The notes beneath the pieces were generated by a model that saw nothing but the letters and a program-made list of their open reading frames with translations, ran no database searches and was not told the DNA's origin. The position numbers and the translations under genes were made by a program. From Deltaproteobacteria bacterium (GTDB taxonomy: Bacteria; Myxococcota_A; Polyangia; Polyangiales; Houyiibacteriaceae), in assembly GCA_034670305.1 (NCBI GenBank), contig JAXMNT010000066.1, positions 1-37,739 of the forward strand: a DNA stretch of 37,739 bases, in the 5' to 3' direction. This document shows, piece after piece, positions 5,857-37,392 of the stretch. The first letter of the stretch is position 1; each line of letters starts with the position of its first letter.

Positions 5857-6824
5857 ACGAAGTCTCGGCGCCGGAAGATCAGCGAGGCCGAGATGAGCAG
5901 GAGCGTGGTGTACACGGCCCCGTACGCCACCGACTCGCCGACGTAACGCCAGGCGTCCGCGCCGTGCAGGACGTTTCGGCCCGGCACGAAGAGGTTGAAG
6001 TTCGGGACGACCACCGCGAGCGCGTGCAGCGCGTCTTCGATCGGACCCGAGAGCAGGCGCGACTGAATGGTCTGCATCGTGTCGGCGCTTCGGCCAACGA
6101 CCCACACCCCGGTGGTCAACAGGCCGGTGAGCAGCGGGGTGGAGAACGCGCTGAAGAACAGCGCGACCGCCGCGAGCACGAAGACCTCGCCGAGGTTGAG
6201 CACGAGCGCCATCAAGACGGGGCCACCCAGGGCCTCGGTCGAAGCGACGTAGGCCAAGCCCGCGCCGAGCGCGCAAGGCGCCCACCAGGACAGCACGCTC
6301 GCGGGATCCCGAAACCGGACGAGGCCGCCGACCAACAAGACGAACACCCCAAACGCCCAGCCGAGCGTCGTCCAAGACGGCCCGCTGGCTTGGACCCCCA
6401 TCACGAAGAGCTGCACCGCGCCCATCACCAGCACGAAGACAGTGGCCGTCCAGGCGATGCCGACGAACTTGCCGACGAGGAACTCCCATCGGTGGAGCGG
6501 TTTGGGCAAGACCACGTAGAGCGTCTTGCGTTCGATCTCCTTGTAGAGGAGTGACGATCCCAAAAAGACCGCGATGACCACGGAGAAGAGCGAGATGGAC
6601 GCGAGCCCGATGTCCTCGACCACCCGGCGCTCCTGATCGAGCGAGAGTTGGGCGAGCGCCAGGCTGAACACAAGCACCGCGACCGCCAGCGCGAGCACCC
6701 CGTAGAGCACGCGATCCCGGACCGCTTCACGAAAGGTGTTCAGGCCGATCGCGAAAACCCGCTGGGTCAATCCGGTGAGCGCACTCGGTTGGCGACGAAG
6801 CGAAGAGGAAGCGGTGGAGGTCAC
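5853..6824 (-). CDS. ABC-2 type transporter permease (PilI-like)
   Basis: NTFREAVRDRVLY, EIERKTLYVVLPKPLHRWEFLVGKF and terminal FRRRDF; multiple TMs; GTG start overlaps the upstream stop. Confidence 0.85.
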   Translation of the reverse strand: MTSTASSSLRRQPSALTGLTQRVFAIGLNTFREAVRDRVLYGVLALAVAVLVFSLALAQLSLDQERRVVEDIGLASISLFSVVIAVFLGSSLLYKEIERKTLYVVLPKPLHRWEFLVGKFVGIAWTATVFVLVMGAVQLFVMGVQASGPSWTTLGWAFGVFVLLVGGLVRFRDPASVLSWWAPCALGAGLAYVASTEALGGPVLMALVLNLGEVFVLAAVALFFSAFSTPLLTGLLTTGVWVVGRSADTMQTIQSRLLSGPIEDALHALAVVVPNFNLFVPGRNVLHGADAWRYVGESVAYGAVYTTLLLISASLIFRRRDFV

Positions 6825-11230: not shown

Positions 11231-11457
11231 GCTGAGGCCGAGGCCGAAGCCGACGCCGAAGCCGACGCCGAAGCCGAAGCTGACGCCGAAGCCGAAGCCG
11301 ACGCCGAGGCCGAGGCCGAGGCCGATGCCGATGCCGAAGCCGACGCCGATGCCGATGCCGAAGCCGAAGCCGATGCCGAGGCCGATGCCGATGCCGAAGC
11401 CGAATCCGAATCCGAATCCGAATCCGAAGGAGAGGATGCGCGGTTCCCGTGCCCGTG
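11231..11457 (+). repeat. (GCCGAN)n-(TCCGAA)n array with conserved 32-nt tail
   Basis: About 30 hexamers followed by CCGAAGGAGAGGATGCGCGGTTCCCGTGCCCG (11424-11455). Confidence 0.9.
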
Positions 11458-23986: not shown

Positions 23987-24236
23987 GCCGAAGCCGAAGC
24001 TGACGCCGTAGCCGAAGCCGAAGCCGATGCCGAAGCCGAAGCCGATGCCGAAGCCGATGCCGACGCCGAGGCCCAAGCCGACGCCGAAGCCGACGCCGAG
24101 GCCCAAGCCGACGCCGAAGCCGAAGCCGACGCCGAAGCCGAAGCCGAAGCCGAATCCGAATCCGAATCCGAATCCGAATCCGAAGGAGAGGATGTGCGGT
24201 TCCCGTGCCCGTGCCCGTGCCCGTGCCCGTGCCCGT
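23987..24236 (+). repeat. (GCCGAN)n-(TCCGAA)n array with conserved tail and (GTGCCC)5 between convergent tesB and ilvD
   Basis: Tail CCGAAGGAGAGGATGTGCGGTTCCCGTGCCCG at 24180-24211. The GTGCCC expansion runs into the ilvD stop. Confidence 0.9.
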
Positions 24237-27184: not shown

Positions 27185-28447
27185 TCAGAAGCAGAGGTTC
27201 GTGCACTCGGTGGCGCCGTTGCGGTTGCACGACTCGCCGCTCGTGCTCGCGTCGCCGATCTCTTCCCACTGGCCGCTCGTGTGGTTCACGACCCAGACGT
27301 CGTTGGCGTTGCCGCAGTCGGTCTTGCCGAACACGACGAACGAGCGGTCCGCGCCGCGGGCGATGCCGAAGCCGTGGCGGCGTTCGGGGGCCGCGAGGTC
27401 CGGGATGGTGAAGTCGCTCGGGAACATACACGCGCCCGACGGTCGGCCGTTGAGGGTGTCGCCGTGCTGGGTCTCGGTCCACGTGCCGCTCGGGTCCACG
27501 CGCCAGAGATCGTTCACGTTGCCCAGATCGGTGCTGTCGTGGCCGGCGACCATCATCAGGTCGTCTGCGGTGGCGAGCAGCGCGCCGCCGAAGCGGCTTG
27601 CAGGCGCGGTCGGCCCGCCGCCGATGACCAGCCGCCAGGTCTCGCCCGCCAGATCGAACGCCCACAGGTCGTTGAGGAATGGGCCGTCGAAGTCGGGGGT
27701 GCCGCCGAAGACGAAGAGCTCCGAACCGAACACCACCATGTCGTGGTAGTAGCGCGGCGGCGGCGGTCCGTCGGCGACGATGACCCGCCAAGCGAGCGTG
27801 TTCAGGTCGAGCGAGAAGAGCTCGCTGTCGCCGGTCGGGGTGAGTCCGCTGGTGGAGGTGTTGCCGCCGAAGACGAGCAGCTGGTTGCGCTCGGTGTCGA
27901 TCGCGACGCCCGCGTTGTTGCGCGCGCTCGGGCCGGTGCCGGTGGTCGCGAGCTGCGTCCACGCCATGGTCGCCAGATCGAGCGACCACACGTCGTCGAA
28001 GTTCGTGTACGGACCGCTGTCGCCGGCGCGGAAGCGGCCGCCGAAGAGCAGCCCCCGGTCGCCGGCCGGATCGTAGACGAAGCCGGACCGCACCCGAGCG
28101 CCCGGTCCGCTTCCGTCTTGCGGCACCTGGGCCCAGGTCTCGCAGGCGACGTCGTACATCCAGACTTCGTCCGTCGCGGTGAAGCGCGGGCTGCACATCA
28201 CCGGTGCGGTCGTGTTGCCGCCGTGCACGACGATGCGGTTGCGGGTCGGATCGTAGAGCGCCGCATGTTCGCCGCGGCCGAGGGGCACTTCACCGACCCC
28301 GCATTCGATGCCCGAGTCCGTGCCCGCGTCGACGGCTGGCGCGTCTTCCATGCTGGCGTCGGTCCCACCGGCGTCGACACTCGAGTCGTCGTCGCCGCAG
28401 GCGGCCAGGAAGAGAAGGGCGGAGAGAAGGGAGATCGAACGGCGCAT
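27185..28447 (-). CDS. Kelch-repeat lipoprotein
   Basis: Lipobox LAA-C; repeated P.AR...YD....LLFGG...DVW..DL...W blades. Confidence 0.88.
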
Positions 28448-28495
28448 GGGCAACGCTGTACCGGCTCCCGTGAGGGCTGGCAATCGGCGGCGTGA

Positions 28496-28697
28496 GCCGA
28501 CGCCGGCGCCGAAGCCGAAGCCGACGCCGAAGCCGACGCCGAAGCCGAAGCCGACGCCGATGCCGATGCCGAAGCCGATGCCGACGGCGAAGCCGAAGCC
28601 GAAGCCGAGGCCGATGCCGATGCCGAAGCCGATGCCGATGCCGACGCCGAAGCCGAAGCCGAAGGAGAGGATGCGCGGTTCCCGTGCCCGGTGCCCG
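28496..28697 (+). repeat. (GCCGAN)n array with conserved 32-nt tail in a divergent intergenic region
   Basis: Tail CCGAAGGAGAGGATGCGCGGTTCCCGTGCCCG at 28659-28690. Confidence 0.9.
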
Positions 28698-28819: not shown

Positions 28820-29941
28820 ATGTACTTGAACCGAGCGACCGCGAAGAGGGTCGTACGTTCCGCACTTCGCCACGCGAGCGTGTCTCGGCTGCCGACGTGG
28901 GCGGGGTTCGGCAGCGCGTGGTTCGGACTGCGCACGTTGGTGGGGGCCGGCCGCAAGGTCGACGACGTGCTCTACCCGGCGTGGGCCGACCAGCAGGTTC
29001 GGGAGCCGGTGTTCATCTTCGCGAACGGCCGGAGCGGTACGACGCTCTTGCACCGGTTGCTCGGGCTCGATGAAGAACACTTCGCGGGGTACAAGCTCTA
29101 CCAGTCGGTGTTCAGCGCGGTGGTGTACCAGCGGCTCATCGAAGCGATCGATCGCACGCCGGTGCTCGGTGATCTCGGCCGGCGCGGCGTCGAACTCATC
29201 AACACGAAGTTCTTCACCGGGTGGGAGGGCATTCACGAGATGGGCATCAACAAGGAAGAAGAGGACGAAGCCACCTTCGCGCTCGCCCTCGAGACGCCAT
29301 CCATCTCGCTCTTGCATCCGTACTTCGAGGGGTATGAGGAGCTCGGCAAACTCGACGACGAACCCCCGGACGTGCGGGCGCGGTTCATGGATTACTACGA
29401 GGCCACCATCCAGAAGCACCTGTTCTCGGTTGGCGGCAACAAACACCTACTGGCCAAGAACGTCTTCACCGCCCCGCGGGTGCGCACCATCCTCGAGCGG
29501 TTCCCCGACGCACGCTTCATCTACCTCGTGCGCCACCCGTACCGCTCGTTGCCCTCCTGGCTAAGCCTCTTCCATGAGAAGTGGATGACGCATTCGCCCG
29601 AGCTCGCGAACGACACCGAGCACTGCCGCGCGCTCGCCCAGATGTGTTTCGAGTACTACCGGATCGCCATCTCGGTGCGCGAAGAGCTCGACCCGCAGCG
29701 GCTGCACGTCGTCCGGTACGAGGATCTCGTCAAGGATCCGAGCGCCATCGTGCGGGGCATCTACGGGTGGATGGGACTCGACATGAGTCCGGCGTACGAG
29801 CAGGCGCTGGCGGCGCGCACCGCCAAGCAGCGCACCTACAAGAGCGGGCACCGCTACTCGCTCGAACAGTTCGGTCTGAGCGAGGCCTACGTCGCCGAGC
29901 AGATCCCCGACGTCTTCGAGGCATTCGGCTACAAACCGTAG
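28820..29941 (+). CDS. Sulfotransferase (PAPS-dependent, Sulfotransfer_3-like)
   Basis: 5'-PSB motif [16 protein letters not shown], 3'-PB motif [22 protein letters not shown] and [10 protein letters not shown]. Confidence 0.9.
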
Positions 29942-30004: not shown

Positions 30005-32188
30005 GTGACCTCCTCCACCCCCAGCATTCCGACCGCCGCCGAATCCCTCATCGGCAAGACCCTCGCGGACTACGCGGTCGAAGCGAAACTCGGCTCCGGC
30101 GGCTTCGGCGCGGTGTTCATCGGGCGCCACCTGCGCACCGGCCGACGCTACGCACTCAAAGTGCTGCGGCCGGACCGCGCGCTCGTCTCTCCCGACGCGC
30201 GTCAGAGGTTCCGCCGGGAAGCGGAAGCGCTCTCGAGCCTCGGCCACATCGGCATCGTGCAGATCCACGACTACGCCAGCGAGAACGGCGTCGACTTCCT
30301 CGTCATGGATCTCCTCGAGGGAGAAGACCTCGCAGCACGGCTCGCGCGTGGTCCGCTCACGCCCGCACGCGCACGGGAGATCGCCGCGCAGGTCGCCGAT
30401 GCGCTTCAAGCGGCGCACAGCCGCGAGTTCGTGCATCGAGATCTCAAACCCGCGAACATCTTCCTCGCGCAGCAGACCGGCGACCAAGAGCGCGCGGTGC
30501 TGCTCGATTTCGGTCTGGCCAAGAGCGTGGCCGAAGGCGCGCCCAGTCTGACCGGATCCGCCGAAGCGCTCGGCACGCCTCAGTACATGGCGCCCGAACA
30601 AGCGACCGGCGAGTCCGTGGACCCCCGGGTCGACGTCTATGGACTGGCGGCGATCACCTTCGAGATGTTGACCGGTCAGCCGCCCTTCACCGGTCAAAGC
30701 GCCGCGTCGATCCTACTCGAGGTGATGACCGTGGTGCCGCCGCGGGTGGACAGCCTGGTCGATGTGCCCGCGACGTGGGCCGATGCGATCGCGCGCGGTC
30801 TCGACAAGGATCGAACGCGTCGCTTCGACGACGTCGGCGCCTTCATCGACGCGCTCGACGGCGAGGTCGGCGGACTCGCCGCAGCCTCCGCGGTGCCCCA
30901 GACACGCGTCTTGCCGAGGAGTTCGGGCGGCGTCGGCGGCGTGCGCTCGAGCGACGGCGCGCTGCAACAGACGTCGCTGCCGGTCAGCAGTGTGCGCCCG
31001 CCGCCCCCGACGGCCGAGAGTCACGCGGTCGTTCCTGCGCGCAGTGGCCACTCGATGGGGCGCATGGCCCTCCTCGGCGCGCTGGTCGGGCTCGTCGCGC
31101 TGGGTTTGCTCGCGGTGGTGTACGCCACCCTGCACGCGCCGCCCGATTCCCCCGTGGCAGTGGCGGATGGCCCGCCCGAACCTGCCGAGACCACCACTGC
31201 GACGCCCACGGTCAGCACCGCTCCGGACCGGGAGGTCGTGCCCGCGGAAGCCGACGGTTCGGACACGACCACGCCTTCTGATTCAGAGGCCAGCGAGATC
31301 GAAGCGGAGTCCGCGGAAGTCGGCGCGCCACCGCCGGAGATGCCACCCTCGCCGCACGCTCGGCAGAGCGAGACGCGGGCCCGCCAGGTCGAGACCTCGA
31401 TGCGACCGCCTCCTCGGACCGCACCCAATGAAGAAACGACTCCGGTGTCCGTCCAGAGTGCGCCTACCGTTGCGGTCGCACCCGTGGGCCTGCCTCCCGC
31501 CGTCAGCGACGCCAACCGCATGATGATCACCCAGTACGAATCTCAGATCGAAGCGATGCGCGAGCTGCTCCAGTTCGTGGGGCCGCTGCGTACCCAGCTG
31601 CAGCCGCTCAGCCGCGGTCGCGAGCCGGTGTTCTGCAACCGACGCCCAGGTCTGCCGCGCGGCAGCGAGGTGCCGCTCGTGGTCTCGTCCTCTCAGCGCT
31701 TGCGGTCGCTCATCGACGACGCCTGCACCCCCTTCGAGCAAGGCCGCAACCCACCCGACGAAGCGCGCTCGCGGATCGCCGCCGTGCCCGCGGTGCTCGA
31801 TCGAAGCCTCGTGATGGCGCAGGATCGCCGGCTGTCGAGCAACGAACCGGTGGCGATCGCCGAAGAGGTCGAAGCGGCCATCGGACGCGCCCGCACCGCA
31901 CTCGATGGCGTCGTGACCGGCAGCCGCCCGTTTCCCTGCGACGACCCGGTCTGGGCGGACTTGCGACGGTTGTCGAACGCCGGCAACAGCTGGTCGGGCG
32001 CGGCCGCGCAGCGGGTGTGGCGTGCGGTCGATCGCAGCTGCCAATCGCTGGGTCTTGGCCGCAGCCGACTCTCTCGGGTGGCGGAACGGGGCTCTGAGAC
32101 GCTCGACTCGATCGAGGGCACCCTGAACGGTCAGATCCGCACGCTCGAGCGGGTGGTGGCGCCGCTGCGGGTCATGGTGAACCCGTGA
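30005..32188 (+). CDS. Transmembrane Hanks-type Ser/Thr protein kinase with Cys-containing helical ectodomain
   Basis: LGSGGFGAVF, ALKVL, HRDLKPANIF, DFGLAK, GTPQYMAPEQ and DVYGLA. One TM, a Pro/Thr linker, then a ~220-aa C-terminal domain. Confidence 0.93.
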   Translation: MTSSTPSIPTAAESLIGKTLADYAVEAKLGSGGFGAVFIGRHLRTGRRYALKVLRPDRALVSPDARQRFRREAEALSSLGHIGIVQIHDYASENGVDFLVMDLLEGEDLAARLARGPLTPARAREIAAQVADALQAAHSREFVHRDLKPANIFLAQQTGDQERAVLLDFGLAKSVAEGAPSLTGSAEALGTPQYMAPEQATGESVDPRVDVYGLAAITFEMLTGQPPFTGQSAASILLEVMTVVPPRVDSLVDVPATWADAIARGLDKDRTRRFDDVGAFIDALDGEVGGLAAASAVPQTRVLPRSSGGVGGVRSSDGALQQTSLPVSSVRPPPPTAESHAVVPARSGHSMGRMALLGALVGLVALGLLAVVYATLHAPPDSPVAVADGPPEPAETTTATPTVSTAPDREVVPAEADGSDTTTPSDSEASEIEAESAEVGAPPPEMPPSPHARQSETRARQVETSMRPPPRTAPNEETTPVSVQSAPTVAVAPVGLPPAVSDANRMMITQYESQIEAMRELLQFVGPLRTQLQPLSRGREPVFCNRRPGLPRGSEVPLVVSSSQRLRSLIDDACTPFEQGRNPPDEARSRIAAVPAVLDRSLVMAQDRRLSSNEPVAIAEEVEAAIGRARTALDGVVTGSRPFPCDDPVWADLRRLSNAGNSWSGAAAQRVWRAVDRSCQSLGLGRSRLSRVAERGSETLDSIEGTLNGQIRTLERVVAPLRVMVNP

Positions 32189-33351
32189 CCCGCCTCGCGA
32201 CCGCGTGTCTCGCCGTATGTCTCTCCGTGTGTGCGCGCACTCCGGTACACGCGCAGGTGTGTCAGCGAACTGCACAGGACTGTGGGGCGCAGACCACCGA
32301 CCTCGATCGCCAGGTCGCCCGGCTTCGCCGACAACATCCCGGCGTGCCCGCCGAAGCGCTCGAAGTGATCCGCCTCGAACGGCGTTCGGCCTGCCACGCC
32401 CACAACGCCTGCCTGCTCGACGACGCTGGTCTGGCACGGACCCAGGCGTGGGCCGAGGCCGAACTACGCGCGCTCGGCACGATGCAGGGCGACGCGGCCG
32501 AAGCGGCGTGGGCGAGTGGCGTGGCGCAGCGGCTCACGCTCATCCGGGGCGCCAACGCCTCCCAGGTCGCGCTGACCCCGAGCATCCCGCCCGAGATGCG
32601 CGCGCGCATGCAGGTGACCATCGACCAGATGACCACGCAGAACGAGGAGCTGTCTCAGTTCGCGGCGCTTTTGAGTGGTCTGGATCAGCAACTGGACCCG
32701 CGGCGCCGTCGGCGCCGACTCGAAGCACCGGCAGCGTGTGTGCCGGCACTCCGCGAGCAGCTGCGCACCATGGTCCGGCAGGGCCACGACATGGCGAGCG
32801 AGGCGCGCTCGATCATGCAGAAGCTCGACGAGGTCTGCGAACCCTTCGCACTCTGGGACGAACCGAACGAGTCGATCCAGGGACGCATCCGACGTTTCCT
32901 CGAGCACGTCGGTCGCATCGAGGGCTGGATGGCCGACATCGGCGAATGCCACGCGGCGGAGAACTACGAGTTCCGGTGCAGCAACGCCTACGGCGAGCGC
33001 AACGCGAGTGCGATCGAAGAGGCCCGCGAAGTGCTGGCGTTGATGCGTGAGGTCCGCACGGTGATGCGCGGCGTTCCGGGCCGGCGCTTTCCGTGCGGTC
33101 ACGCGCTGTGGCGGCGCCTGCGGGAGAGCACCTGGACCGTTCGCACCGCCACCGCTCAGGTCCCTCGCCTCGGTGCCTCGGCCGTGGATGTCTGCGAAGC
33201 CATCGGCGTCGATCCGGCGAACCTGCAAGAGGCCAAGACCGACATGACCAACACCCTCGAACGAACCCTCGCCCGAATTGCACAACGGCGAACCCAGAAC
33301 GAGCAGACCATCGTACGCTTGCGCCAGGCCTACAACATCCCCGCTCCCTGA
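32185..33351 (+). CDS. Secreted Cys-rich helical protein, paralogous to the upstream kinase ectodomain
   Basis: GTGA overlap with the kinase stop; signal peptide ending VHA-Q; colinear motifs shared with the kinase C-terminus (CxPF, FPCxxxxW, C..xG). Confidence 0.82.
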
Positions 33352-33360
33352 ACGCCCTCG

Positions 33361-33723
33361 ATGAACGCAGTCGTCAACCTCTCCCACCGTTTCGATCTCC
33401 CGCCCGACGCGTTGTTCGCGCTCTTGCTGGATCCGACCGCCTGGTGGGACGAAGACGCGACCGGCACGCTGGAAGCCACGGTGGGCGGCGCGTTCACCTC
33501 GAGCGACGAATGCGGCACGGTCCGCGCGATGGAAGCCGCGCAAAAGCTCACCCTCGAGCTCGACGACGACACCCTCGTCCTCCTCGTTCTGAACGCCGGC
33601 CTCGACGGAACCGAACTCACCGTCCTCCACACCCGCTTCGAAAGCGGCACCGCCCGCGACGAATACCTCCCCCGCTGGCAAGCGCGCCTCACCCGCCTCG
33701 CCGCCCTCGCCACCCCCGCCTGA
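33361..33723 (+). CDS. SRPBCC/AHA1-like domain protein
   Basis: [13 protein letters not shown]...[17 protein letters not shown]...L..L pattern. Confidence 0.75.
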
Positions 33724-33735
33724 GCCCGCCAAAGA

Positions 33736-34034
33736 ACGGGCACGGATTCGGGCTTCGGCGTCGTCGGCGGCTTCGGCTTCGGGATCGGGATCGGTGTCGG
33801 CGTCGGCGTCGGCTTCGGCTTCGGCTTCGGCTTCGGCTTCGGCTTCGGCTTCGGCGTCGGCGTCGGCTTCGGCGTCGGCTTCGGTGTCGGCTTCGGAGTC
33901 GGCTCTTCGGCGTCGGCGTCGCTTCGGTGTCGGCTCTTCGGCGTCGGCGTCGGCTTCGGAGCGTCGGCTTCGGAGCTTCGGCTTCGGCTCTCCTGGCTTC
34001 GGGCTTCGGCGTCGCTTCCGGTTTGGGCTTCGGT
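33736..34034 (-). repeat. (GCCGAN)n array in reverse orientation with degenerate tail
   Basis: Minus strand reads GCCGAA/GCCGAC units with occasional AAGA inserts, ending ...CCCGAATCCGTGCCCGT. Confidence 0.85.
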
Positions 34035-34937: not shown

Positions 34938-35378
34938 GTGTCGGAGCTCTTGGTGATCGAAGATGGGCATGAGTACGAGGAGTTCGCTCGGCTCTTTCTC
35001 TCGTCGTGGTCGATCCGCGCCGCCCACTCGGCCGAAGAAGCGCTGCGGCTCCTCTCCGAGCGGGCCGCCGATGCGTTCCTCGTGGACCTGCGCTTCGAAC
35101 GTTCGCCGGTGGACGATCTGGTCGGAGACGTAGAGCAGACGGCCAAACGCCGGTTCGGCGGCGACGTGCACCGGGCGGTGCGCTACCTCAAGGAACAGCA
35201 GGGCACGCTGGTGTTGAACGAGATCCGAAACGCCGGACATCAAGGCCCGGCCGTGTTCGTGCACGACTTCCCCCCGCGCCGCCTCGCCAACTTGAAGAAG
35301 CTCTACGGCAACGTGCACGCCGTCGGCGGATTCGACGCCAAGGCGATCGGTGCGGCCTTGGCCGAGGGCGCGGCGTGA
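34938..35378 (+). CDS. Atypical stand-alone response-regulator receiver protein
   Basis: LLVIED, AHSAEEALRLL and DAFLVD (phospho-Asp position); long insertion; no conserved Thr or Lys. CATACT 6 nt upstream of the GTG. Confidence 0.78.
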   Translation: MSELLVIEDGHEYEEFARLFLSSWSIRAAHSAEEALRLLSERAADAFLVDLRFERSPVDDLVGDVEQTAKRRFGGDVHRAVRYLKEQQGTLVLNEIRNAGHQGPAVFVHDFPPRRLANLKKLYGNVHAVGGFDAKAIGAALAEGAA

Positions 35379-35725
35379 CGCCGGTCGAACAGCTGCGCCT
35401 CCTCTCGCACGACCTCGGCAAGTACCTCGCGCGGGCCGCCCGCAACTTTCCGGACGCCGACCCCGTGCCGGAGGTGCTCGTCGAGATGATGATGCGCGAC
35501 GTCTGGGGAGACGAGGGCACCGATGCGCTCGGCCGGTTTCAGAAGCTCGTCGCAGACGCACCGTCGGTGCGCCTCGAACTGGCGGACGTCGAAAAGGACC
35601 TCGAGACGTTGGTCGGCTTGGAGGCGGCGGTGCGCGGGTTCGAGCCGAAGGCGGTCCGCCAAGCCGCGGCGCTGTGCGTGAAGGTCGACGCGGACCTGCG
35701 CCGCCGCCTGGAGCAACGCTCGTGA
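35375..35725 (+). CDS. Small helical protein with HisKA-like H-box (putative phosphotransfer protein)
   Basis: 116 aa; LSHDLGKYL; GTGA overlaps at both ends; no HATPase motifs. Confidence 0.7.
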   Translation: MTPVEQLRLLSHDLGKYLARAARNFPDADPVPEVLVEMMMRDVWGDEGTDALGRFQKLVADAPSVRLELADVEKDLETLVGLEAAVRGFEPKAVRQAAALCVKVDADLRRRLEQRS

Positions 35726-37392
35726 GCGCACCCAAAGTCCTGGTGGTCGACGACGGAGACCGGTACGTCGAGCTCTTCCACGCGCTGCTGCGCGACTACC
35801 AGTACGCCACTCGATGCGAGCTGCCTGGGCCGTGCTGGACTTGCCCGCACCGCGCGCCGAAAGACGAACCGCGCTGTCAGCTGACCCACGCGCACGATTG
35901 GGCGGAGACCGAACAGGCGCTGGCGCGGCACGCGGATCTCGATGTGGTGTTGCTCGATGTGGCGTTCGACCTTCCCGCGACCCGGCTGCTTCCCTACGGC
36001 GACGACGCCGAGACTCGAAAACGAAAACAGGGGCTCGCGATCCTCCAGCGGCTTCGCGTCCGGCGCCCGGACCTGCCGGTGATCCTGATGACCTCGGCGA
36101 CGCAGCTCGGCGTGGATGGCTCCCCGCTCGAGGCCGACGAGTGGGTGACGCTCGCTGGCGAAGACGCGTTCGACGCCCGCGCACTCGGTCTGCTCGTCGA
36201 ACGCATCCTTGCGCGGGACCGGCAGGTCAGCCTTCGACCCGGGCTTGGCCGCGGGACGGACTATCTCTGGGGCACGACGACCGCGATGGCGCGGGTGCGC
36301 CGCAACGCCCGCGTGCTCGCGCGCACGTCCTTGCCGGTGCTCATCGAAGGCGAGACCGGCACCGGCAAGTCCGCGCTGGCCGAGCGGGTGCTTCACGGCG
36401 AGTCGGGCCGGAGCGGCGCGTTCGTCTCGGTCGACTTGAGCGCGATCCCAGAGACGCTCGTCGCCGCCGAGCTCTTCGGTTCGACGCGCGGCGCGTTCAG
36501 CGGCGCGACCGATCGGGTGGGTCGGTTCGAAGAGGCCAAAGGCGGCACGCTCTTTCTCGACGAGATCGGCAACCTGCCGCTCGACATCCAGCGGCTCCTC
36601 TTGCTCGCGCTGCAGGAAGGACGGGTGACGCGTCTCGGGGAGAACACCTCGCGCACCTTGGACGTGCGTCTGGTGGCGGCGACCCACGTCGACCTCGCCA
36701 GCGCAGTGCGCGAGGGGCGGTTTCGGGCGGACCTGCGGGCGCGCCTCAACCCGGCCAGCACGATCCGGCTGCCGCCGTTGCGTGAGCGGGTGGAGGACAT
36801 CGAAGCGTTGGTCGCGTCGTTCGTCGAACGGCACTTCGCCTCCGGCTCCGAGCGCGGCCTGCTCGCGGAGTACGCGAAGAAGGCGGGGCTGGAAACCGAG
36901 CCCACCGCGCACCTGCTCGAGGACACCGAACCGCCGGCCCGCGGCGTGTGGTTCTCGTGGGCGCCCGCACTGTGGGAGCGGCTTCGTGCGCACGCTTGGC
37001 CCGGCAACGTGCGCGAGTTGCAGCTCTTGGTGGCGACCGCGTGTTCGCTCTCGCTCGCCGATGCGCTCGAGGGTGCCGAAGCGGGCAGGGCGGGGCCGCT
37101 CGCGCGCGTGGTGCCGATTCCGGCGCGGCTGGTCGGGGAGCTGCTCGCCAGCAGTTGGCTCGGCCCGGAGGCCGACGTGCCGACCGCGACCACCGACGTC
37201 ACCCCGCGCGATCAGCTGCGGGACGTGTCACGCGAACTCGAACGCGCGCTCTTCATGCGGCTGTTCCGCGAGACCCGCGGCGACTTCGAACGCATGGCGG
37301 CGCGGCTTCTGACCGGCGATCCCACCGAGAACGCGCGCCGCGTCCGGATGCGCTTCAACCAGCTCGGACTTCGGATCCGCGAGCTGCGCTAG
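35722..37392 (+). CDS. Sigma54-dependent enhancer-binding protein with Cys/His-inserted receiver domain
   Basis: KVLVVDD...DVVLLD receiver, GETGTGKS, ELFG..RGAFSGA, GGTLFLDEIG, FRADL..RL, WPGNVREL; Fis-like but atypical C-terminus. Confidence 0.92.
   Translation: MSAPKVLVVDDGDRYVELFHALLRDYQYATRCELPGPCWTCPHRAPKDEPRCQLTHAHDWAETEQALARHADLDVVLLDVAFDLPATRLLPYGDDAETRKRKQGLAILQRLRVRRPDLPVILMTSATQLGVDGSPLEADEWVTLAGEDAFDARALGLLVERILARDRQVSLRPGLGRGTDYLWGTTTAMARVRRNARVLARTSLPVLIEGETGTGKSALAERVLHGESGRSGAFVSVDLSAIPETLVAAELFGSTRGAFSGATDRVGRFEEAKGGTLFLDEIGNLPLDIQRLLLLALQEGRVTRLGENTSRTLDVRLVAATHVDLASAVREGRFRADLRARLNPASTIRLPPLRERVEDIEALVASFVERHFASGSERGLLAEYAKKAGLETEPTAHLLEDTEPPARGVWFSWAPALWERLRAHAWPGNVRELQLLVATACSLSLADALEGAEAGRAGPLARVVPIPARLVGELLASSWLGPEADVPTATTDVTPRDQLRDVSRELERALFMRLFRETRGDFERMAARLLTGDPTENARRVRMRFNQLGLRIRELR

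Follow-up and report, generated by a model that had tools for sequence, protein, structure and literature searches.

The window analysed here, a contig of 37,739 nucleotides (nt) from a Deltaproteobacteria bacterium of the class Polyangia (JAXMNT010000066.1 of assembly GCA_034670305.1), contains a gene for a receptor Ser/Thr kinase followed by a gene for an exported protein, hereafter the partner, whose C-terminal domain is a paralog of the kinase's own ectodomain. Together, the two genes are shown to make up a predicted two-gene periplasmic sensing module, in which the partner, slightly more probably than not, acts on the kinase by direct contact. An earlier note on this DNA had proposed a signalling module with a secreted partner, and of this proposal the true paralogy and the conserved, coupled gene pair stood; many relatives, by contrast, have a lipoprotein as partner in place of a free secreted one.

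Homology, domain layout and predicted fold

A BLASTP comparison of kinase residues 485–726 with partner residues 124–384 gave one colinear alignment of 273 columns with 23% identity, 16% gaps and an E value of 6e-4, and every segment pair that the earlier note had matched by eye over about 220 amino acids (aa) lies inside it. The Smith-Waterman score of the two C-terminal parts was 107, about 12 standard deviations above residue shuffles (36 ± 5.8), and none of 1000 composition-preserving shuffles of either protein attained this score. With the partner as query, 16 loci were fetched from 16 other genomes, which together with the window gives 17. The profile comparison used 17 kinase ectodomains (alignment A1) and 17 partner domains (alignment A2), with a merged alignment of 34 rows, and hhalign aligned A1 to A2 over 224 columns with a probability of 99.87% and an E value of 9.7e-32. 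Six positions, P54, C57, C87, F156, C158 and C192 in the numbering of the 240-aa ectodomain, are invariant in all 34 rows, and the four cysteines, already placed in register in the earlier note, are kept across the 34 domain sequences along with an F-P-C motif. Cross-matches between kinase-type and partner-type domains were also obtained in most loci. The homology of the kinase ectodomain and the C-terminal ~260 aa of the partner is confirmed, weakly in the pairwise comparison and decisively by profiles. A search with the single partner protein against its own genome did not list the kinase ectodomain among its matches; the profiles did retrieve it.

The 34-domain profile was searched against 1.84 billion representative proteins and recovered 82 at E ≤ 1e-3, of which 68 also pass E ≤ 1e-10 and 53 pass E ≤ 1e-30. 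As sorted by BLASTP, these 82 library matches comprise 19 proteins with a kinase catalytic domain and the new domain C-terminal to it, 57 partner-type proteins or fragments and six weak unclassified sequences, with no further domain architecture among them. In Pfam neither the ectodomain nor the partner had a family at E ≤ 1, and across the members any one family matched at most two of 34 domain sequences and at most one of 20 partners; in NCBIfam the partner had no family and the kinase matched kinase-domain models only. The sequence search of the PDB gave nothing below an E value of 0.0048, where the matches were short coiled-coil stretches, and the ESM Atlas gave no usable match to the partner domain. 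A protein search with the partner found only two proteins, at 96% identity (from an independent metagenome) and 50% identity. When genome contigs were searched, the single partner found no relative and an alignment of three close relatives found three loci. No description of the kinase–partner pair or of the domain was found in the literature at the level of titles and abstracts. The earlier note had not recognised the domain either, and these searches support an undescribed and very narrow domain family, which occurs in only a few families of Polyangia-type myxobacteria.

The kinase matches Pkinase (PF00069) in the Pfam scan with 157.9 bits against a cut-off of 31.7 (aa 23–236). Hanks-type kinases carry a Gly-rich loop, the Lys of VAIK, and the HRD, DFG and APE motifs, and the set is complete here, with GSGGFG at 30, ALKVL at 50, HRDLKP at 144, DFGLAK at 168 and APE at 196. 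Only one stretch (aa 350–379, maximum 2.7) has a Kyte-Doolittle 19-residue mean above 1.6, and the predicted protein conforms to the single-pass receptor type, with one transmembrane helix between the catalytic and the C-terminal domains. We infer this topology from the cytoplasmic kinase domain and from the confinement of cysteines to the ectodomain; the whole 727-aa protein holds four only, at 544, 574, 645 and 679, and these invariant residues would fit periplasmic disulfides. The region of the tether that follows the membrane helix (aa 377–495) is made up largely of P (23), A (18), T (15), E (14), S (12) and V (12).

The partner start codon (GTG) and the kinase stop codon (TGA) share 4 nt (GTGA), and the open reading frames (ORFs) bear out the gene coordinates, this coupling and the position of the SRPBCC gene 9 nt downstream as the earlier note had given them. 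The partner has four cysteines in its N-terminal part and six in its C-terminal part, and its Cys-rich N-terminal domain and extra C-x9-C loop, both pointed out in that note, are located at Cys 26, 33, 70 and 76 and at Cys 255 and 265, respectively. The four N-domain cysteines are invariant or nearly so in an alignment of this region (A5). In the C-terminal part, Cys 185, 218, 304 and 337 are in register with the four cysteines of the kinase, and the C-x9-C insertion takes the place of the kinase's conserved S-x-N-x-P loop. The loops conserved in kinase copies (alignment A1) are S-x-N-Q-P and A-G-N-x-W-S-G-A-A-A, while those conserved in partner copies are C-x-x-P-G-P-Y-x-x-R-C-x-N-A-Y-G and W-T-x-R-T-A-x-A-Q-x-P, and these paralog-specific loops are candidate binding sites.

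Homologs of the partner share a conserved A-x-A-Q ahead of the first cysteine, and partners carry signal peptides or lipoboxes. With the lipobox defined as [LVI][ASTVI][GAS]C at the signal peptide end, no canonical lipobox was seen by eye in the partner of the window (L-S-V-C, with V at -1), and a regular-expression search of its 96%-identical homolog (P0004) was negative. A lipobox was seen by eye in the partners of five of the 16 fetched loci, and at least 16 of the 63 non-kinase library matches carry one by regular expression, with a few further by eye. In the lineage of the window the partner is soluble and has an extra four-helix, Cys-containing N-domain without a tether, whereas in other lineages it is a lipoprotein on a long low-complexity tether; the N-domain is absent from lipoprotein-type partners and present in 13 of the 82 library matches. 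Because the cell is diderm and the protein has a Sec signal peptide or lipobox, the partner is predicted to be Sec-exported and, by default, periplasmic rather than at the cell surface. Three lipoprotein-type partners among the library matches (P0037, P0042 and P0047) have a different Cys-containing N-terminal segment (Q-C-T-I-D-G ... R-D-C), and by BLASTP the domain of P0047 resembles the kinase type (8e-29) more closely than the partner type (3e-11). These three proteins may represent a further sublineage or a second duplication.

Structure modelling and fold comparison, the checks proposed in the earlier note, gave confident helical models, while no PDB match was found by Foldseek at E ≤ 0.001 for either the ectodomain or the partner model. 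The AlphaFold2 model of the ectodomain, made with the 34-row alignment, has a mean predicted local distance difference test score (pLDDT) of 95.5 and a predicted template modelling score of 0.85, and comprises seven helices, of which the two end helices (11–50 and 199–238) are long and five lie in between. The model of the mature partner (pLDDT 90.9) contains, modelled within the whole mature protein, an N-domain at residues 10–100 with helices at 10–27, 33–51, 57–76 and 80–100, then a low-confidence hinge at 103–108, and beyond it the helical domain known from the ectodomain, which here includes a short hairpin and the C-x9-C insertion. The best sensor match by Foldseek was McpS (2yfb), with a probability of 0.93, an E value of 0.14, a TMq of 0.35 and a root-mean-square deviation (rmsd) of 11.5. 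The best rows of VIA-align, at Z 9.4 and 9.1, were below the helical noise level (~13 by arrangement alone), and comprised de novo bundles, the periplasmic histidine-kinase sensor Adeh_2942 (4k0d_B; Z 9.1, rmsd 3.2, 125 aligned), chemoreceptor ligand-binding domains, flagellin-like hairpins and plant invertase/PME inhibitors; McpZ (8f7n_A) was at Z 8.8, with an rmsd of 7.6 and 205 aligned. The fold as modelled is a helical bundle of general sensor-domain type, for which these comparisons gave no specific relative.

Conservation and descent of the gene pair

The earlier note had proposed a search of Myxococcota genomes for conserved kinase-plus-paralog pairs, and such pairs were found. With the partner as query, homologs were detected in 19 of 61 related genomes, two of them weak (E 0.004–0.007) and regarded as spurious, and the other 17 at E ≤ 2e-14. 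All 16 fetched loci have the kinase ectodomain and then the partner domain on the same strand, and 15 of these loci include the catalytic domain as well, the contig of locus L014 ending inside the kinase. Because these loci had come from the partner query, the search was repeated with the kinase ectodomain profile, which matched 17 of the 61 genomes at E ≤ 1e-69, exactly the genomes with a strong partner match. For each genome of two further even samples, six first-look candidates were scored, so weak copies may be missed in the counts that follow. The order-wide sample had the domain in 26 of 401 genomes at E ≤ 1e-8, and 22 of these 26 have two adjacent matches on one contig and strand; the phylum-wide sample had it in three of 401 genomes, all from the same order. 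As for the others in the order-wide sample, the kinase and partner halves of genome G498 sit at two contig ends, the partner of G459 is at a contig start, and G055 has an unpaired kinase only. In G523 the kinase is followed by a truncated 213-aa lipoprotein (L045, 3488–4129) that overlaps the kinase stop (ATGA) and retains only the first half of the domain, with the first helix and the first two cysteines; judged from its sequence, it is a shortened or decaying partner.

The pair is present in five GTDB families (f1, f13, f14, f22 and f23) with differing flanking genes. In 12 of the 17 loci the kinase stop shares 4 nt with a start codon in the partner frame; for three of these 12 (L025, L026 and L027) a later start is likelier, because the signal peptide lies far downstream. 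L036 has a 1-nt overlap, L028 a 2-nt gap, and L030, L031 and L035 have gaps of 58–78 nt between kinase and partner. An overlap or a gap of ≤2 nt is thus present in at least 11 of the 17 loci, with three ambiguous and three gapped. These arrangements support a conserved two-gene module that would be translationally coupled in most cases.

In the maximum-likelihood tree the 34 domains fall into two clades of 100/100 support, one of kinase copies and one of partner copies, whose subclades match, and these two supported clades indicate one duplication that predates the spread over families and was followed by joint descent. In three close genome pairs, the ratio of nonsynonymous to synonymous substitution rates (dN/dS) was 0.07–0.13 for the ectodomain, 0.09–0.17 for the partner domain and 0.03–0.10 for the catalytic part, and no overall diversifying selection was seen in these pairs. 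The dN values of ectodomain and partner were nearly equal in each pair (0.050/0.061, 0.050/0.052 and 0.185/0.177). Both copies are functional and under purifying selection. Evolutionary distances bear on co-variation, which the earlier note had named as a check: across 15 loci the ectodomain and partner distances are correlated (r 0.79), the partial Mantel r after removing catalytic-domain distances is 0.68, a value that none of 2000 permutations attained, and the ectodomain distances follow those of the partner better than those of their own catalytic domain. This correlation counts as soft evidence only, the genomes being related to one another and tests of this kind being liberal.

The genome of the window also has an unpaired kinase on another contig (G000 contig 21; L042 5992–8163, minus strand), 723 aa in length and of the same layout, with a diverged ectodomain, and similar unpaired kinases are present at L043 (G004), L044 (G023) and L049 (G055). 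The unpaired kinase of the window's genome keeps the four cysteines and the F-P-C motif (profile E 8e-10 to 4e-10), and for such kinases in three or four genomes, this one included, no second copy of the domain was found within the fetched flanks.

Possible working of the pair and competing explanations

On balance we favour, by a small measure, the reading that the partner directly pairs with the kinase ectodomain in the periplasm and sets the oligomerisation of the kinase. Binding as a ligand, co-receptor or decoy is plausible, given the strict co-occurrence, the parallel rates and the same compartment of the two proteins. The partner would associate with the ectodomain, probably through a surface that otherwise serves ectodomain self-association, and this association would set whether kinase molecules meet and trans-autophosphorylate. 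Since about 110 aa of disordered tether separate the ectodomain from the membrane, a piston-type signal is unlikely and control by association or oligomerisation is more plausible, and the partner appears suited to stand in for a second kinase molecule because it has kept the core and the cysteines and has conserved loops of its own. It could either recruit the kinase, as an activating co-receptor, or keep kinase molecules apart, as a restraining decoy. A more specific version, to which we give somewhat less than even weight and which is put forward tentatively, is a receptor and pseudo-receptor pair built on a disulfide-stapled helical sensor fold, in which the heterodimer with the partner would mimic the ectodomain homodimer and gate trans-autophosphorylation. 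The complex prediction with A1 and A2 gave scores of 0.31, 0.31 and 0.26 against a mark of 0.32, without controls, and is counted neither way.

Periplasmic or lipoprotein accessories that set the output of a membrane sensor kinase by touching its sensor domain are represented by CpxP and NlpE for CpxA and by TorT for TorS, and regulation by heteromerisation of paralogs, both of them full kinases, by RetS and GacS. However, CpxA, TorS, RetS and GacS are histidine kinases, and CpxP, NlpE and TorT are not known to be paralogous to the sensor domains they bind. The nearest bacterial precedent for a Cys-bearing kinase ectodomain that also occurs as a free protein is the PknH-like domain. According to PMC4118811, a receptor Ser/Thr kinase of Mycobacterium tuberculosis bears this sensor domain as its ectodomain; the domain has two intramolecular disulfides and is also found free-standing in secreted proteins or lipoproteins (LpqQ, LprH, LppH, LpqA and Rv3705c); PknH itself has been proposed there to signal through altered kinase localisation or oligomerisation. 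The domain here had no Pfam match to PknH-like or PknH_C families (kinase and partner at E ≤ 1, the 34 domain sequences at E ≤ 0.01), and differs in that the ectodomain is all-helical and the free copy is a single ortholog adjoining the kinase, usually overlapping its stop. To our knowledge, no comparably strict pairing of kinase and kinase-free copy is on record for PknH. All-helical periplasmic sensors, such as four-helix-bundle domains, the HBM domain of McpS and TorS, may resemble the modelled domain in their antiparallel bundle with long first and last helices. In contrast to them, the domain here has two conserved Cys pairs, lacks any sequence match to them in Pfam or the PDB, and is carried with a free C-terminus on one transmembrane helix through a disordered tether, not between two transmembrane helices.

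Of the hundreds of myxobacterial Ser/Thr kinases, very few have an identified signal or partner, and here the genome itself names a candidate extracytoplasmic partner, a strictly co-inherited paralog of the sensor domain. The pair would be a testable case of a receptor kinase on a floppy tether whose switch is association rather than a transmembrane piston, and the new narrow domain family (82 in 1.84 billion proteins) comes with a confident model for structural and binding studies. If the heterodimer is true, regulation by a truncated receptor copy would have arisen independently in bacteria, as a prokaryotic counterpart of decoy receptors, co-receptors and the SRK and SLG proteins of Brassica.

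Several points weigh against direct pairing. The unpaired kinases that carry the domain speak against the pair being obligate, since in them it can evidently function with no paralog at its side. Among related genomes, common descent and a common compartment can account for adjacency and similar rates without any contact, and the differing loops fit the binding of different things as well as they fit complementary surfaces. In one rival explanation the two proteins bind the same or a related periplasmic molecule in parallel and without contact, the partner being a buffer, scavenger, carrier or enzyme-like handler of that molecule and the kinase reporting its level. Conservation of both domains under purifying selection, the invariant loops of each paralog, the unpaired kinases and a weak structural likeness to small-molecule-binding helical sensors (2yfb, 4k0d and 8f7n) would all be consistent with it. 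Nevertheless, it is not obvious why a carrier or scavenger should require strict adjacency to the kinase and an overlap of stop and start across five GTDB families, and the structural matches are below the helical-bundle noise level of the tool. We regard parallel binding as unlikely, though deserving of some weight.

A smaller chance still is given to a sensor of envelope status, for which the reporting of NlpE to CpxA serves as a model. Here the partner would report on lipoprotein sorting, disulfide formation or envelope spacing, and the kinase would detect its mislocalised or misfolded form. This suggestion draws on the lipobox of many partners (at least 16 of 63 non-kinase library matches and five of 16 fetched loci), on the invariant Cys pairs of both proteins and on the long flexible tethers that carry both domains. 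However, the partner of the window has no canonical lipobox and has an extra domain in place of a tether, and the suggestion is a special case of direct binding that sequence data do not separate from the favoured explanation.

Kin or self recognition, raised in the earlier note, would make the secreted paralog and the receptor an allele-specific pair acting between cells, as in the nearest formal analogue, the SRK and SLG pair of Brassica. According to PMC11170026, the receptor Ser/Thr kinase SRK is genetically linked to SLG, a secreted protein paralogous to the SRK ectodomain, which is formally the same arrangement as here; SRK and SLG share 76–97% identity and vary greatly between haplotypes, SLG enhances the response of SRK by a mechanism described as unknown, and SLG is not the specificity determinant even in Brassica. 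The Brassica pair is also young and eukaryotic, with an unrelated lectin/EGF/PAN ectodomain, whereas the pair here is ~23% identical, ancient and under purifying selection. High allelic diversity or diversifying selection, as in that system, was not seen here, as dN/dS was 0.07–0.17 over both domains in the three close genome pairs, which are not a population sample. Moreover, a 96%-identical homolog is present in an independent metagenome and both proteins are predicted to be periplasmic, the partner by default, and the idea is left as very improbable. Finally, a chance or compositional resemblance of two helical, Arg/Ala-rich proteins, with adjacency as local synteny, could appeal to the 23% identity and 16% gaps, and it is refuted by the shuffles (0 of 1000), the hhalign E value, the cysteines and F-P-C motif invariant in 34 sequences, the cross-matches in most loci and the retention of the pair in five GTDB families with differing flanks.

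Coordinates, neighbouring genes and minor observations

The coordinates of the two genes, their predicted domains and two neighbouring genes are given in Table 1.

Table 1. Features of the kinase–partner locus (positions in the window).
Feature	Position	Strand	Basis
Sulfotransferase gene, 63 nt upstream of kinase	28820..29941	+	PF13469, E 2.9e-29
Receptor Ser/Thr kinase gene	30005..32188	+	ORF, 727 aa; PF00069 match
Cytoplasmic Hanks-type catalytic domain, aa 23–273 (predicted)	30071..30823	+	Pfam matches aa 23–236 and 25–273
Single transmembrane helix, aa 351–376 (predicted)	31055..31132	+	Hydropathy
Low-complexity P/A/T/E/S-rich periplasmic tether, aa 377–487, ~110 aa (predicted)	31133..31465	+	Composition; without Pfam match
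Kinase ectodomain, 240 aa, all-helical, four invariant Cys	31466..32185	+	Alignment A1, AlphaFold2 model, hhalign to partner domain
Partner gene, 388 aa	32185..33351	+	ORF; GTG start
Predicted signal peptide of partner, aa 1–23	32185..32253	+	VHA/Q cleavage motif by eye, hydrophobic N-terminus
Partner N-terminal domain, four helices, Cys 26, 33, 70, 76	32254..32559	+	AlphaFold2 model, alignment A5
Partner C-terminal domain, ectodomain paralog, Cys 185, 218, 304, 337	32563..33348	+	Alignment A2, hhalign, AlphaFold2 model
Partner-specific insertion, C-x9-C (Cys 255, 265)	32947..32979	+	C129 and C139 invariant in A2; gap in kinase (hhalign)
AHSA1/SRPBCC-family gene, 120 aa, optional neighbour	33361..33723	+	PF08327

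The SRPBCC gene that lies 9 nt after the partner matches PF08327 over aa 12–116 with 25.7 bits against a cut-off of 22.1 (E 1.5e-5), and the earlier note had considered it as a third component. It follows the pair in only six of the 16 fetched loci, all of family f1, L037, one of the ten loci in which it was missed, having no room downstream, and a signal peptide was looked for in its product by eye and none was seen; it is at most an optional, lineage-limited neighbour. Seven of the 16 loci have a sulfotransferase gene within the fetched flanks, its distance and orientation differing from locus to locus; it was seen at no locus of another family and is a syntenic neighbour inside this family only. 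A downstream coiled-coil protein, a receiver-like ORF and a sigma-54 activator were each in none of the 16 fetched loci, and a Kelch lipoprotein was near the pair in three of 16; because of these counts, the four genes were dropped as components. The core of the module is the kinase and the partner, two genes. In the window, the Kelch-repeat lipoprotein gene lies upstream of the pair (27185–28600, minus strand), and the gene for the sigma-54-dependent activator, an AAA+ protein with a weak receiver-like N-terminus, lies 2 kb downstream (35350–37392, plus strand).

Tandem hexamer arrays of the GCCGAA type, with 28–45 copies, are intergenic and in either orientation at 11237–11429, 23987–24185, 28495–28664 and 33751–34033 of the window and at 5886–5974 of L042. 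Two inverted arrays flank the block of sulfotransferase, kinase, partner and SRPBCC genes, and they were considered as borders of a mobile unit. This was rejected, since the window has the same array at two further sites and another lies close to an unrelated locus; the array has the look of an intergenic microsatellite spread over the genome.

In one further locus (L038 3361–5740, genome G049), the catalytic domain and transmembrane helix of the kinase are in one frame and the ectodomain is in another. The low-complexity tether must contain a frameshift, which would come either from an error of assembly or from a gene that is broken. An intact 780-aa relative of this kinase is present in the protein library (P0049).

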